A DNA stretch of 4,880 nt from a virus (lineage: Duplodnaviria; Heunggongvirae; Uroviricota; Caudoviricetes). This document shows positions 1-4,880 of this stretch, piece by piece. The position numbers and the translations under genes are program-made. The stretch's first letter is position 1; each line of letters begins with the position of its first letter. The notes below the pieces were generated by a model. The model was not told the origin of the DNA. It did not search any database and saw nothing but the letters and a program-made list of their open reading frames with translations. Location: IMG/VR virus record IMGVR_UViG_2690316166_000015, one strand, 5' to 3'.

Positions 1-48
1 AAGTCTGTGAATACGTTCAAGAACCCCGGCTGCCGCAATGTTTTTCAT
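1..48 (-). CDS. 5' end of a CDS running off the window start (ATG at 48; first residues MKNIAAAGVLERIHRL). Possibly a DnaC/P-like helicase loader, judged only from operon position and N-terminal style.
   Basis: ATG at 48..46 on the minus strand, preceded by GGGGGTGA (Shine-Dalgarno-like) about 7 nt upstream; begins 6 nt after the stop of the upstream initiator gene; open to the window edge. Only 16 codons visible, so product assignment is a guess. Confidence 0.35.
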   Translation of the reverse strand, partial: MKNIAAAGVLERIHRL

Positions 49-54
49 GCCACA

Positions 55-1119
55 TCACCCCCTGAATCCCGGCGGAATTTCGGTATCCGGTTCAGAAATA
101 TGATTCACACAACGCTGGTTGTTCGTGCCGCTTACCGGGAGCAACCAGGGGTTTTCAAAATTCCGGTCCGGCCCAAAAAACGTCGTCGCTCGCTGAACAA
201 ATTCCGTTCCCGCTTTCCCGGTCGCCGCCAGGTATCTCGCGTAACGCCTCACACCATCCAGCATGGTCTCTGGTGGCACCCCCTCGCGCAATCTGGCCTT
301 CCAGGCACTGAATGCGGATTTCTTCGGGTTTGCCCCGGCACGCAACGGGTATTCCCGCCAGACCTGTTCGAACACATCCGGATAATCCACTCGTCCCACA
401 GGCTGCCCGGTGTTTTCCGGGGCTACCCGATCGGCTTCCCGCTGAATGGCGGAATCGGCTTCAGGCTGCTGCAGTTGGAGTGATTGCTCCGGCCTTGCGG
501 TCATCACCTGCTGCACAGCGCCCGAATCGGCTTTCAGCGCATACGCTGAATCGGCTTCCGGTGTCGAGCCTGCTGGCTGACCAGGATTGACGGTCTGAAC
601 ATCCCCTGCCTGGTTCGTGGCGTTTTTTACGCCATGGACCATAGTGTTTTGATCTTCTTTATCTGTATCTTTATCTGTATCTGTCGTGACTCGTCGTGAC
701 ATGTGCGTGACATTTCGTGACGCGCCGTGACAATCGCCATTTTGTTCCCGCTTTCTTTCCCTCTCTCGCTGCGCCCTCTTGCGCTCTGCAGGAGATTTTG
801 CGGTTTGCGAAATATTGCCGTTGTCCTCTTTAAGCACCTGGCGTTTTTCCCATCCAGTGATTAAATCACCATCAAGTACCCGCCCCTGCATCGTCTGCAA
901 AATTGAATCAATTACCTCTTCTGTCACGTCGAGCGCACTTGCCAAATCTTCTGTCGTGACATCAATGTGACCTCGCGTGACATTTCGTGACGCGCTCACC
1001 AGGAGGTGGATATACACTGCCATCACTGTTGCAATTGGCTGCCCTGACACCCTGGCAATTGTTCGCCACTTAGGGTCATTTGGCATGTCATGCCATAATC
1101 TGAGCCAGGCGTTAGCCAT
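55..1119 (-). CDS. Phage replication initiator (lambda O-like / prophage replication-protein family), about 354 aa
   Basis: Long minus-strand ORF from the six-frame track (55..1125). I place the start at ATG 1119..1117 (MANAWLRLWHDMPNDPKW...) because GAGGTG lies 4-5 nt upstream; the GTG at 1125 sits inside that Shine-Dalgarno. Architecture: N-terminal domain, charged low-complexity linker (ERKRAQRERERKREQ, DTDKDTDKED), C-terminal domain with YPDVFEQVWREYP...KKSAFSAWKARL, which I recall from prophage replication proteins. Iteron-like repeats lie inside the gene. Family recalled from memory, not searched. Confidence 0.7.
   Translation of the reverse strand: MANAWLRLWHDMPNDPKWRTIARVSGQPIATVMAVYIHLLVSASRNVTRGHIDVTTEDLASALDVTEEVIDSILQTMQGRVLDGDLITGWEKRQVLKEDNGNISQTAKSPAERKRAQRERERKREQNGDCHGASRNVTHMSRRVTTDTDKDTDKEDQNTMVHGVKNATNQAGDVQTVNPGQPAGSTPEADSAYALKADSGAVQQVMTARPEQSLQLQQPEADSAIQREADRVAPENTGQPVGRVDYPDVFEQVWREYPLRAGANPKKSAFSAWKARLREGVPPETMLDGVRRYARYLAATGKAGTEFVQRATTFFGPDRNFENPWLLPVSGTNNQRCVNHISEPDTEIPPGFRG
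658..681. repeat. Perfect 12-bp tandem direct repeat TTTATCTGTATC x2 in an AT-rich stretch
   Basis: Read directly: 658-669 and 670-681 are identical. On the minus strand this encodes the DTDKDTDK part of the initiator linker. Confidence 0.9.
681..731. repeat. Iteron-like cluster A: five CGTGAC hexamers at about 10-11 bp phasing
   Basis: CGTGAC at 685-690, 695-700, 706-711, 716-721, 726-731 (spacings 10, 11, 10, 10). Contains a 21-bp block GCGTGACATTTCGTGACGCGC (705-725) repeated perfectly in cluster B. Confidence 0.8.
921..1000. repeat. Iteron-like cluster B: four phased GTGAC-containing units plus one inverted copy
   Basis: CGTGAC at 955-960, TGTGAC at 966-971, CGTGAC at 976-981 and 986-991; inverted copy GTCACG at 923-928. 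CTGTCGTGAC (951-960) and the 21-bp block (975-995) are perfect copies of 681-690 and 705-725, both offset by exactly 270 bp. Confidence 0.8.
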
Positions 1120-1190
1120 ACTCACCTCTTCTGATACCGAATCTTTTTACTCACGAGTTGCCGGGAGCGATTCGATATGGCTATTGTCAG

Positions 1191-1616
1191 TCAATGTACT
1201 GCCACAGCATTTCCTGCCGGGCCACCACGGTTCATCTGATTGAAACCGGCGATTGCCACTGCGACAAAATCATCAGCGTCTCTCACCAGTCGTTCATGCG
1301 TCTCCACCAGTTCCCGAAAATAAGCTGAACTGTGGCTGCGCATTCGAGCCACCAGCGGAGGTGGCATTGCCCTTTCGATCGCAGGTAACAACGCCTGAAT
1401 TTTTTCAACAGCGTCAGGGGTGTCTTTATCCAGCCAACGGAAAATCTTTTGGGTGTTGAGATAAAGCGTGTTGTGCTTGCTGTCGTTATGCAGAACCGGA
1501 AACGTCATTCCCAGTTCGAAATAAACCCTGGTTATTTCAGCTGCCGGAACTTTTTCACCGTCCGGATGCGCCCAGGCTTTCATCGCCATGCGGATGTGTT
1601 CATGCTTGATTTTCAT
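1191..1616 (-). CDS. ydaT: YdaT-like protein (prophage CII-like regulator / putative toxin family), 141 aa
   Basis: Complete ORF in the track; N-terminus MKIKHEHI matches my recollection of Rac prophage YdaT-family proteins; sits between an upstream regulator-side gene and the replication initiator as in Rac-type early operons; start overlaps the upstream gene stop (ATGA). Confidence 0.65.
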   Translation of the reverse strand: MKIKHEHIRMAMKAWAHPDGEKVPAAEITRVYFELGMTFPVLHNDSKHNTLYLNTQKIFRWLDKDTPDAVEKIQALLPAIERAMPPPLVARMRSHSSAYFRELVETHERLVRDADDFVAVAIAGFNQMNRGGPAGNAVAVH

Positions 1617-1781
1617 GAATCAACCCCCGCCGATGGTTGTGTGTTAGCCTGAAACTCAGCAGGCAAGCCGTCAGTTGGGTTGGGGTAGGTTTTACTGTCA
1701 ATCTCATGTGGGGTCACCACCCATCCCGTTGCTTCACACCAACGTAATATTTTTTCTCCTGTAAGTTTTGCACGCCCCGTT
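1613..1781 (-). CDS. 3' portion of a CDS whose 5' part is N-masked (visible C-terminus ...TGRAKLTGEKILRWCEATGWVVTPHEIDSKTYPNPTDGLPAEFQANTQPSAGVDS); function not recognised
   Basis: Open minus-strand frame from the mask boundary down to a TGA at 1615..1613 that overlaps the ydaT-like ATG (1616..1614). This coupling supports real coding. The 496-aa ORF in the track is an artefact of reading through N. Confidence 0.45.
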
Positions 1782-2926: not shown

Positions 2927-3131
2927 CCTTCCAAGGTCGTTTTGCCTTACGATATTCGTCATAAACTTTGGGGTCGTACTGAAGTTCCCCGCCAGATGCC
3001 TCTTGCAGGCGCATCGCGCGACCTTCAGGAACCAGTTCCCCCCATGCAGCAATGCTTGCCAGCCTAACTCCTGCGGCATTGGCAAGCTTTGTTTTGCTGC
3101 CAAAAAACGCTATAGCATCAATTTTCAACAT
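2927..3131 (-). CDS. dicC: Cro-like small DNA-binding protein (DicC / P22-Cro-like); 3' end lies in the masked block
   Basis: ATG at 3131..3129 on the minus strand with AAGGAG Shine-Dalgarno 6-7 nt upstream (complement of 3137-3143). Visible 68 aa: MLKIDAIAFFGSKTKLANAAGVRLASIAAWGELVPEGRAMRLQEASGGELQYDPKVYDEYRKAKRPWK, which resembles P22 Cro/DicC as I recall them. Divergent from a DicA-like repressor. Stop codon not visible. Confidence 0.65.
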
Positions 3132-3207
3132 ATCGAGCTCCTTAGATTTTCCTAAGGAAACTAGATCGTAGAGAAACCTAAGTCAAGAAAAATTAGAATT
3201 CCCTAAT
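3132..3207. promoter_or_regulatory. Divergent promoter/operator region between the cro-like and dicA-like genes, with three operator-like palindromes
   Basis: CCTTAG-attttc-CTAAGG at 3140-3157; degenerate GTAG-agaaac-CTAAG at 3168-3182; ATTAG-aattcc-CTAAT at 3192-3207; centres about 25 bp apart. Candidate leftward promoter: -35 TTGACT (complement of 3181-3186), 17-bp spacer, -10 TAGTTT (complement of 3158-3163). Candidate rightward -10 TAGAAT at 3194-3199. Confidence 0.6.
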
Positions 3208-3615
3208 ATGAAAAACGAAACCTTCGGTGCTCGCCTCTTACATAGGCGTAAAAAATTAAAACTGTCTCAGGCCGCATTAGGTAAGCTGGTCAAAGTGGCT
3301 CACGTAACAATTTCTCAATGGGAAAGAGATGAAACACAGCCGGCGGGGAAAAGATTATTCGCACTGAGCCAAGCGCTTCAGTGCTCACCGACTTGGCTTC
3401 TTTTTGGGGATGAAGATAAACAACCAGGCGAACCGATCCCGGATAATCAGCCAGCCATTCTGACAGAAGATCAAAAAGAGTTACTTCAACTGTTCGACGC
3501 ACTGCCTGAGTCAGAGCAAAAGGCCCTGTTGTCAGAGATGCGTGCTCGAGTTGAAAATTTCAACAAACTTTTTGAAGAACTACTCAAAGCTCGCAAAAGA
3601 AGCGCAAACAAATAA
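3208..3615 (+). CDS. dicA: HTH XRE-family repressor, DicA-like (CI-functional analogue), 135 aa
   Basis: Complete ORF. Sequence ...LSQAALGKLVKVAHVTISQWERDETQPAGKRLFALSQALQCSPTWLLFGDEDKQP...MRARVENFNKLFEELLKARKR matches my memory of E. coli Qin prophage DicA closely. Divergent to a cro-like gene and followed by a ydfA-like gene, as in the Qin dicA locus. Confidence 0.8.
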   Translation: MKNETFGARLLHRRKKLKLSQAALGKLVKVAHVTISQWERDETQPAGKRLFALSQALQCSPTWLLFGDEDKQPGEPIPDNQPAILTEDQKELLQLFDALPESEQKALLSEMRARVENFNKLFEELLKARKRSANK

Positions 3616-3688
3616 TCCCCTTTTTTCTCCACACCCTGTAATAAAAAGCACAAACTTTCAAACACTTGTGTTTTTTACATCAAAAAAA

Positions 3689-3735
3689 CTTAGGTTTTTC
3701 TACACAAAAATCTTGACCGCCCACCTTAGGTTATT
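3689..3735 (+). promoter_or_regulatory. Candidate repressor-controlled rightward promoter downstream of dicA (two CTTAGG operator half-sites and a -35-like TTGACC); the -10 would fall in the mask
   Basis: CTTAGG at 3689-3694 and 3725-3730 (same half-site as the dicC/dicA operators); TTGACC at 3713-3718; the expected -10 position (about 3736-3741) is N-masked. Confidence 0.4.
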
Positions 3736-4326
3736 NNNNNNNNNNNNNNNNNNNNNNNNNNNNNNNNNNNNNNNNNNNNNNNNNNNNNNNNNNNNNNNNN
3801 NNNNNNNNNNNNNNNNNNNNNNNNNNNNNNNNNNNNNNNNNNNNNNNNNNNNNNNNNNNNNNNNNNNNNNNNNNNNNNNNNNNNNNNNNNNNNNNNNNNN
3901 NNNNNNNNNNNNNNNNNNNNNNNNNNNNNNNNNNNNNNNNNNNNNNNNNNNNNNNNNNNNNNNNNNNNNNNNNNNNNNNNNNNNNNNNNNNNNNNNNNNN
4001 NNNNNNNNNNNNNNNNNNNNNNNNNNNNNNNNNNNNNNNNNNNNNNNNNNNNNNNNNNNNNNNNNNNNNNNNNNNNNNNNNNNNNNNNNNNNNNNNNNNN
4101 NNNNNNNNNNNNNNNNNNNNNNNNNNNNNNNNNNNNNNNNNNNNNNNNNNNNNNNNNNNNNNNNNNNNNNNNNNNNNNNNNNNNNNNNNNNNNNNNNNNN
4201 NNNNNNNNNNNNNNNNNNNNNNNNNNNNNNNNNNNNNNNNNNNNNNNNNNNNNNNNNNNNNNNNNNNNNNNNNNNNNNNNNNNNNNNNNNNNNNNNNNNN
4301 NNNNNNNNNNNNNNNNNNNNNNNNNN
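3736..4326. other. Unreadable: 591-nt N-masked block between dicA and the ydfA-like ORF
   Basis: Sequence is N; content unknown. Confidence 0.99.
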
Positions 4327-4444
4327 CTGAACAGGGCTAAGTAGCCAGCCTGAGGCATACGAACATGACGGCAGGGTTCAATCTTTAACTATGCAGCAGG
4401 TTTTTTGTTCCGCCACCCCGGCGTTAAGGGGAAATGAGGTCAGC

Positions 4445-4597
4445 ATGGATACTATCGATCTTGGCAACAACGAATCTCTGGTGTACGGCGTGTTCCCCAA
4501 CCAGGACGGCACATTCACCGCCATGACGTATACCAAAAGCAAAACGTTTAAAACCGAATCTGGCGCGCGTTGCTGGTTAGCCAGAAACACTGACTGA
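4445..4597 (+). CDS. ydfA: YdfA-like small protein (DUF1391-type), about 50 aa
   Basis: ATG at 4445 preceded by GAGG (4436-4439) 5 nt upstream; MDTIDLGNNESLVYGVFPNQDGTFTAMTYTKSKTFKTESGARCWLARNTD matches my recollection of Qin YdfA. The track ORF starts at 4391, but that ATG has no Shine-Dalgarno, so I prefer 4445. Confidence 0.6.
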   Translation: MDTIDLGNNESLVYGVFPNQDGTFTAMTYTKSKTFKTESGARCWLARNTD

Positions 4598-4608
4598 TGA
4601 GGCTGACG

Positions 4609-4880
4609 ATGGAATTTAAAGATTTACCGTCTGATGTACAGAAAACAGCAGCTCATACATTGCATTCTGTGCTGCGAGAAATCGGGAAAGATATTGCAAG
4701 CGAGCCAGCAAAAGATCTGGCCCGGAAAATCAAGACCGCTTTCGTTGAGCTTTATAATGTTGGCACTGACTCTGAAACTGTCGAGACCAAGACCGTAAGT
4801 TCACCAATATTCTCACTTGAGCCAAGCGTATTATCAGGTGAAATATGCACCGAGATTTCCAGCGAACTGCTTCCGGTAAT
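4609..4880 (+). CDS. Hypothetical protein, 5' partial (runs off the window end); acidic, not recognised
   Basis: ATG at 4609 with GAGG (4599-4602) 6 nt upstream and 11 nt after the ydfA-like stop; in-frame and stop-free to 4880 (MEFKDLPSDVQKTAAHTLHSVLREIGKDIASEPAKDLARKIKTAFVELYNVGTDSETVETKTVSSPIFSLEPSVLSGEICTEISSELLPV...). Absent from the ORF track only because it has no stop in the window. Confidence 0.55.
   Translation, partial: MEFKDLPSDVQKTAAHTLHSVLREIGKDIASEPAKDLARKIKTAFVELYNVGTDSETVETKTVSSPIFSLEPSVLSGEICTEISSELLPV

Follow-up and report, generated by a model that had tools for sequence, protein, structure and literature searches.

Which promoter, if any, follows the repressor gene in the immunity region of this prophage, and what does it transcribe? 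The window, that is, the whole stretch of DNA analysed here (4,880 nucleotides from a virus of the Caudoviricetes, IMG/VR record IMGVR_UViG_2690316166_000015), contains a dicA-like gene that is followed by a short visible interval and then by a run of masked letters. The original prediction placed in this interval a second set of operators and the −35 element of a rightward promoter under repressor control, analogous to the DicA-repressed promoter of the dicB operon (dicBp) of prophage Qin. The analysis below leads us to interpret the segment 3687-3742 as a probable early-left promoter of the PL type in a defective, Qin/Rac-like prophage, orthologous in position to dicBp and carrying two operators for the DicA-like repressor. 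We estimate the probability of this reading at roughly 85%.

Organization of the immunity region

The window corresponds to the immunity and early region of a lambdoid prophage that resembles Qin and Rac. Its main features are the following:

55-1119, minus strand: O-like replication gene, with iteron-like GTGAC repeats inside
1191-1616, minus strand: YdaT-family gene
1782-2926: largely masked stretch
2927-3131, minus strand: visible part of the dicC/cro-like ORF, with its 3′ end under the mask
between 3131 and 3208 (76 nt): divergent region between dicC and dicA
3208-3615, plus strand: ORF of the dicA-like repressor gene (135 aa)
3616-3735 (120 nt): stretch from dicA to the mask, with the promoter site
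3736-4326: mask of 591 N after the promoter
4327-4444, plus strand: 118-nt leader before ydfA, the 3′ part of a "long-leader" ydfA upstream region
4445-4597, plus strand: ydfA (Pfam DUF1391 at 7.8e-28), first gene of the early-left operon
from 4610 to the end of the window at 4880, plus strand: ydfB-like ORF following ydfA

The product of the dicA-like gene matches Pfam HTH_3 (7.8e-14) and no other domain; an S24 peptidase domain is absent. The protein is 62% identical to K-12 DicA over its full length, and its N-terminal 68 residues (2-69) match structures of the P22 C2 repressor in the PDB with E = 1e-21. By its helix-turn-helix, its size and the lack of S24, this 135-aa protein is a repressor of the DicA / P22 C2 type without an autocleavage domain. 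The homologue of the dicC/cro-like gene in two related loci (L001 and L004) is annotated as Cro/CI and matches the Pfam family P22_Cro. The succession of dicC-like gene (minus strand), dicA-like gene (plus strand) and promoter site at 3687-3742 is the gene order of K-12.

RNA folding of the segment 3600-3700 revealed a hairpin at 3642-3677 (plus strand), flanked by an A-tract and a U-tract, with a free energy of −12.1 kcal/mol and a z score of −2.1. The hairpin did not pass a scan for GC-rich terminators, and a different hairpin is found at this position in other genera; we consider it a candidate for a weak, possibly bidirectional intrinsic terminator between dicA and the promoter. An Rfam scan of the window returned no match. 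At the opposite end of the window, the O-like gene contains TCTTTATCTGTA twice in tandem and two clusters of GTGAC repeats (656-679, 693-731, 953-991), which resemble origin iterons such as those in lambda O.

Two predicted operators flank and overlap the promoter elements

The sequences singled out in the original prediction, two CTTAGG half-sites at 3689-3694 and 3725-3730 and the hexamer TTGACC at 3713-3718, lie exactly at these positions, ahead of the mask that starts at 3736. The half-sites were correctly assigned to the motif of the dicC/dicA operators; their pairing as the two halves of one operator did not hold. Each CTTAGG begins an imperfect palindrome of its own, with the 16-bp form CTTAG-N6-CTAnA, and supplies its left half; the centres of the two palindromes are 36 bp apart. 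The elements of the site are:

3687-3706: distal, OL2-like operator aaCTTAGgtttttCTACAca, core CTTAGgtttttCTACA at 3689-3704, just upstream of the −35
3713-3718, plus strand: −35 hexamer TTGACC, visible in the window, between OL2 and OL1
3723-3742: proximal, OL1-like operator; CTTAG (3725-3729) and gttatt (3730-3735) visible, CTAAA (3736-3740) predicted
3737-3742, plus strand: predicted −10 TAAATT, masked, deduced from homologues only, inside the right half of OL1

At 14 of 16 positions, OL2 agrees with the minus-strand sequence of the central dicC/dicA operator (CTTAGGTTTCTCTACG); its right half (CTACA) is poor. The missing part of OL1 can be read from relatives. Sixteen near-identical loci, eleven from E. 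coli and other public assemblies (L001, L004-L013) and five from viral contigs (L033-L037), share 98.6-99.9% identity with window positions 2927-3735; several of the assemblies appear again in the Shigella-type set described further on. All of them have CTTAGGTTATT up to the position of the mask edge and CTAAATTTCATTCATCAAGACACC past it. This continuation starts with CTAAATT, which would complete OL1 and generate the arrangement TTGACC-18 nt-TAAATT. OL1 is CTTAGGTTATTCTAAATT in all 16 loci; in one of them (L008) it was compared with the perfect palindrome CCTTAG-N6-CTAAGG and deviates from it by two mismatches. Thus, the second half-site would indeed sit between the −35 and the −10, as had been proposed, and the hidden −10 is most simply read as the TAAATT found at 18 nt in all near-identical unmasked relatives. 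Transcription is predicted to start near 3749. What can be seen of the promoter in the window is intact and does not differ from L008, L009 or L033.

A consensus promoter scan of L008 recovered TTGACC-18-TAAATT with 9 of 12 matches. Scans of this kind return about one site per kb by chance, and a −35-like hexamer by itself is not significant; the real support for the promoter is its conservation, described below. A third operator was absent from the promoter of L008 at up to three mismatches, as well as from the listing of palindromes. With only two sites detectable, the promoter does not reproduce the three adjacent operators of a lambda-type OL.

The same motif in the dicC/dicA divergent region

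The region between dicC and dicA contains three 16-bp sites, spaced by 26 and 25 bp, and a candidate promoter:

3139-3158: divergent operator 1, TCCTTAGattttcCTAAGGA; core CTTAGattttcCTAAG at 3141-3156, a perfect palindrome (extended TCCTTAG-N6-CTAAGGA)
3167-3182: divergent operator 2, CGTAGagaaacCTAAG
3192-3207: divergent operator 3, ATTAGaattccCTAAT
3186-3181 (−35) and 3163-3158 (−10), minus strand: candidate dicC promoter

The first of these sites corresponds to the K-12 operator Oc (TTGTTAGTCATAACTAACAA) by its form and location. Binding of DicA to the inverted repeat Oc is indicated by in vivo assays, in which altering one base was enough to abolish the effect (PMC3441716). Two other K-12 operators predicted from the sequence, Om and Oa, gave no DicA binding in vivo (PMC3441716), so a sequence match alone is no proof of occupancy. 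At 3687-3742, inverted repeats of the same type as those of the divergent region overlap the promoter.

One could imagine that two AT-rich hexamers and a TTGACC resemble an operator-promoter by chance, with no regulatory role; the rate of about one consensus hit per kb and the masking of the −10 in the window speak for this idea. Motif counts point the other way. The window contains five copies of CTTAGG where 0.88 would be expected, a number that none of 200 shuffled sequences reached; four of the five copies are in the dicC/dicA region (3151-3156 and 3177-3182, minus strand) or at the promoter site. The longer motif CTTAG-N6-CTA, allowing at most one mismatch, gave seven matches against 0.96 expected (0/200 shuffles), all seven within the two regulatory regions. 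The exact motif is present six times, against 0.21 expected, in an unmasked 14.8-kb relative (L033), where again all copies except one fall in the two regulatory regions.

Conservation of the promoter site

The interval from the repressor gene to ydfA was aligned for the window and 14 loci, comprising E. coli and Shigella-type assemblies, phage PPompW, Pantoea stewartii, an Erwinia sp. and Enterobacter hormaechei. The invariant blocks of the alignment coincide exactly with OL2 and with OL1/−10, and the flanking sequences cannot be aligned between genera. The repressors of the Pantoea, Erwinia and Enterobacter loci show 74% identity. Among the 15 loci, the 16 nucleotides of OL1 exist in three versions and those of OL2 in four, against ten versions of the six-nucleotide spacer between the −35 and OL1. 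The −35 is TTGAC[CT] or TTGATC in most relatives.

The variability of this spacer (3719-3724) deserves separate mention: its ten versions occur in 15 loci whose surrounding sequence is otherwise 98-99% identical (L001-L013, L120 and L109-L111 compared). The six nucleotides could mark a hot spot or the junction between modules.

On a larger scale, the 18-mer spanning OL1 and the −10 is present in 78 viral contigs, 70 of which also have OL2 upstream and most of which have TTGAC at the −35. Among 5,426 complete E. coli genomes, 751 (about 14%) contain the 809-nt segment from dicC through dicA to the promoter with a coverage of at least 80%.

Relationship to dicBp of K-12

In MG1655, dicA is followed by TGTTAGctatagCATACA-aaatca-CTTGACC-gata-TGTTAGtcatggCTAATCtt. 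The resemblance to the window extends to the location directly after dicA, the identical −35 TTGACC, the 135-aa HTH-only repressor and the ydfA (DUF1391) operon downstream. In both cases one operator extends across the spacer and the −10 (in the window, the predicted −10), the −10 lying inside its right half-site, and another is found just upstream of the −35, at a distance of 35-36 bp. The two promoters differ in the −10, which is TAATCT at a 17-nt spacer in K-12 and TAAATT at 18 nt in relatives of the window type. The half-site is GTTAG in K-12 and CTTAG in the window (TTGTTAG and TCCTTAG, respectively, in the strongest site), and helix 2 of the repressor reads TQRSLAK in K-12 DicA and SQAALGK in the window protein. 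Finally, the window has an additional masked stretch and a long-leader segment between the promoter and ydfA.

The K-12 promoter has been described as PL-like; its activity increases 22-fold upon deletion of dicA, operators are reported between dicA and dicBp (three in K-12, by sequence inspection), and repression is relieved by the antirepressor Rem and by a DicC switch (PMC10448788). The regulatory databases on which Reg-Seq drew list a DicA site at dicB with low evidence and an unknown location (PMC7567609).

Operator sequence changes with the repressor

Palindromes of the form 5-N6-5 were listed in both regulatory regions of eleven DicA-type loci. The window type and the loci of Pantoea and Enterobacter have CTTAG...CTAAG between dicC and dicA, and at OL1 they have CTTAG...CTAAA. 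In K-12, E. albertii, E. ruysiae, Citrobacter and Buttiauxella, the divergent region has GTTAG...CTAAC, and the downstream sites of the same five loci are GTTAG...CTAAC and GTTAG...CTAA[AT]. The two downstream operators are separated by 35-36 bp in every member of the CTTAG type (n = 3) and of the GTTAG type (n = 5). A third group (L023, L030) has TTGAG...CTCAA at both places. Four loci with unrelated repressor types likewise carry a motif of their own, repeated at both places: TTTAGTGTTT in L002, AATAGCnnTGCTATT in L014, ACACA...TGTGT in L039, and a further one in L003. A motif that changes with the repressor type is what one would expect of downstream sites that serve the adjacent repressor as operators. 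As CTTAG-N6-CTAAG and the K-12 motif GTTAG-N6-CTAAC are one outer base apart, the window type would be a heteroimmune variant of the K-12 module.

Taken with the 62%-identical DicA homologue that precedes the site and the identical TTGACC, this tracking of the repressor by the motif supports the rightward, dicBp-like promoter that had been proposed. A fortuitous resemblance, which we now hold to be extremely unlikely, is effectively refuted already by the comparative data: the elements are invariant across genera while the adjacent spacer varies, they covary with the repressor type, and their positions are those of K-12 dicBp.

The recurrence of one motif on both sides of dicA, with only that gene in between, raises a different question, namely whether the downstream sites serve mainly in autoregulation and looping, or as sites for the Cro-like DicC. 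Looping between OL and OR is established in lambda. By analogy, the downstream set would pair with the divergent operators about 0.55 kb away, stabilise the repression of dicC and tune dicA. For K-12, DicC sites are reported at promoters from which dicB and dicF are transcribed (PMC11430063). Such a role would be an addition to control of the promoter rather than an alternative to it. In every relative, OL1 overlaps the −10 and the spacer, an arrangement typical of direct occlusion. In K-12, moreover, deletion of dicA strongly derepresses dicBp (PMC10448788). As the main function of the sites we judge it quite improbable.

The masked stretch and the possible target of the promoter

In every relative, a short conserved leader (CATCAAGACACCGCACGGTG...) follows the promoter, and the first gene is reached about 75 nt after OL1; the genes downstream are ydfA, the ydfB-like ORF, dicB, ydfD and an exonuclease gene. 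In the window, a leader of another, long type comes after the mask (80 nt, at 4327-4406), and only the last 38 nt or so of the short one (4407-4444) are present. The short leader (CCATCAA...CACCGCACGGTG...CTCAG...GTTCCGC...CCCCGGCGTTAAGGGG, around 4536-4611 of L008) is conserved across immunity types and genera, even in front of a different first gene. For a possible conserved two-hairpin RNA within it, RNAalifold gave four pairs only and almost no covariation, which makes no convincing structure.

The segment 4327-4406 was found only in prophages of other immunity types. In its carriers (L002, L003, L014 and 71 viral contigs) the long leader lies 60-75 nt downstream of a PL-type promoter belonging to such a different immunity type. 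The first 38 nt of the segment are identical to the 71 viral contigs, which have a repressor of 139 or 129 aa; from 4365 on, the sequence is of the Shigella type, except for six scattered differences at 4485-4516. This mosaic was not found elsewhere. The junction of promoter and long leader was absent from the 5,426 complete E. coli genomes (BLAST with 3600-4880 and with the whole window) and from viral contigs and metagenomes probed with window-specific 36- to 57-mers. Exact-protein look-ups with DicA, the O-like protein and YdfA, and a scan of genome contigs with DicA, likewise retrieved no sequence that joins the promoter to the long leader.

Eighteen Shigella-type loci, which have a different cro gene (cro87, 87 aa) and a 166-aa HTH repressor, match the left part of the window (1-1781, with the islands 2188-2210 and 2406-2435) at 100% identity. 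The window thus seems to hold the remains of two immunity modules in tandem (1613-2600 and 2927-3615), with both junctions inside masks. A BLAST search of the 5,426 complete E. coli genomes with a chimera of the 166-aa repressor gene and dicC/dicA did not find the tandem of cro87/166-aa repressor and dicC/dicA, nor did it appear in the other collections searched. The N-runs at 1782-2187 and 2211-2405 measure 406 and 195 nt, against 332 and 156 nt in the Shigella-type loci; the stretch between the islands is 156 nt long in nine viral contigs and in the assemblies, and none has 180-210 nt. The mask lengths (including those at 2436-2926 and 3736-4326) are therefore probably not true lengths, and the nominal 591 nt should not be trusted.

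Toxin-antitoxin pairs stand between the repressor gene and the PL-type promoter of two related prophages (relBE and PaaA2-ParE; L002 2350-2821 and L014 4128-4612). The idea that the mask hides such a pair was discarded: the distances do not fit, as about 672 nt would be needed from the repressor stop codon to the leader match, and in L002 and L014 the pair stands before the promoter, not after it.

The context of the long leader suggests a reading in which a masked recombination or insertion has orphaned the promoter. It would then drive a moron or the remnant of a repressor gene, or be a relic, and the ydfA operon would depend on a second PL-type promoter of another immunity type, located in the mask some 60-75 nt upstream of 4327. 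Three observations favour it: in all carriers, 4327-4406 is preceded at that distance by its own PL-type promoter and operators; a window-type promoter followed by a long leader occurs in none of more than 70 viral contigs and none of 16 assemblies, an arrangement absent also from the other database sequences searched; and the left part carries remains of a second immunity module, cro87 and the 166-aa repressor, with 100% identity to Shigella-type loci. Against it, the visible promoter elements show no decay with respect to L008, L009 and L033, and read-through would still reach ydfA unless a terminator intervenes. We consider an orphaned promoter rather unlikely.

As for the ydfA-like operon, which the original prediction named as the target, ydfA and the ydfB-like ORF are indeed downstream, with dicF and dicB falling beyond the window; the intervening 591 N and the foreign type of leader make this assignment less certain. 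The unusual context may be due to a rare recombinant, to an assembly chimera or to an effect of window preparation. It leaves the identification of the promoter unaffected, with the ydfA operon as a putative immediate target in this locus.

A more specific possibility, which we regard as improbable, is that the locus is a natural hybrid with cro87/166-aa repressor, dicC/dicA and perhaps a third promoter set under the mask, all in tandem. If so, the DicA-controlled promoter would read into an insert of about 0.5 kb ahead of a second, differently controlled PL-type promoter, placing the operon of the cell-division inhibitor under two repressors, or a new gene under DicA control.

Comparison with lambda, P22 and other prophages

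The identification of 3687-3742 as a PL-type promoter places the window alongside lambda and P22. As in these phages, a cro-like and a cI-like gene diverge, a second operator set for control of the early-left operon follows the repressor gene, and operators overlap the promoter; the N-terminal domain of the window repressor is moreover homologous to that of P22 C2. The window differs by having two clear operators at the promoter instead of three, palindromes of 16-20 bp with a 6-bp centre, and a repressor that would not be directly SOS-inducible for want of the S24 cleavage domain. No N/nut antitermination module was identified in it, unlike lambda.

In lambda, rexAB is found between the repressor gene and PL. 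The toxin-antitoxin pairs of the related prophages occupy the same position. Rfam matches to isrK and to C4 antisense RNA are found just upstream of a gene for an antirepressor of the Rha/Ash family in two related loci (L014 1701-1889; L039 10741-10942). Located in the early-left operon, this combination of isrK/C4 and antirepressor gene amounts to a c4/ant module like that of P1, embedded in a lambdoid early operon.

The PPompW phages and the loci of Pantoea, Erwinia and Enterobacter share both the architecture and the CTTAG operator type of the window; the Citrobacter, Buttiauxella and E. albertii loci share the architecture. The annotation of these alleles goes no further than "dicA: regulator for DicB", and the records and literature searched contained no annotation or study of their operators or promoters.

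A model for control of the early-left operon

The promoter-operator arrangement is of a well-known kind: the locus would be a heteroimmune DicA-type module, with no new mechanism. The repressor would act as a dimer, as suggested by its P22 C2-type helix-turn-helix and by the palindromic form of its sites. Bound to OL1, across the spacer and the −10, and to OL2, which abuts the −35, it would exclude sigma-70 RNA polymerase; OL2 may add occupancy or block upstream contacts. Upon inactivation of the repressor, transcription would proceed rightward from near 3749 into the early-left operon, which comprises ydfA and the ydfB-like ORF here and, in relatives, ydfC, dicF, dicB, ydfD and an exonuclease or antirepressor gene. 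As the repressor lacks an S24 domain, inactivation would presumably not involve RecA-stimulated cleavage; an antirepressor or a switch operated by the Cro-like DicC, as in Qin, is the presumable route.

The practical value of these findings is modest. They establish where the operators and the promoter lie, and what their sequence is, in a heteroimmune DicA module that is common, being carried by about 14% of complete E. coli genomes. The series of CTTAG and GTTAG operators provides sequence-level support for the site of DicA action at dicBp, adding precision to a principle that stays the same. It also leads to a prediction of which prophages are cross-immune, with a specificity that would depend on a single outer base in the half-site and on the residues of helix 2.
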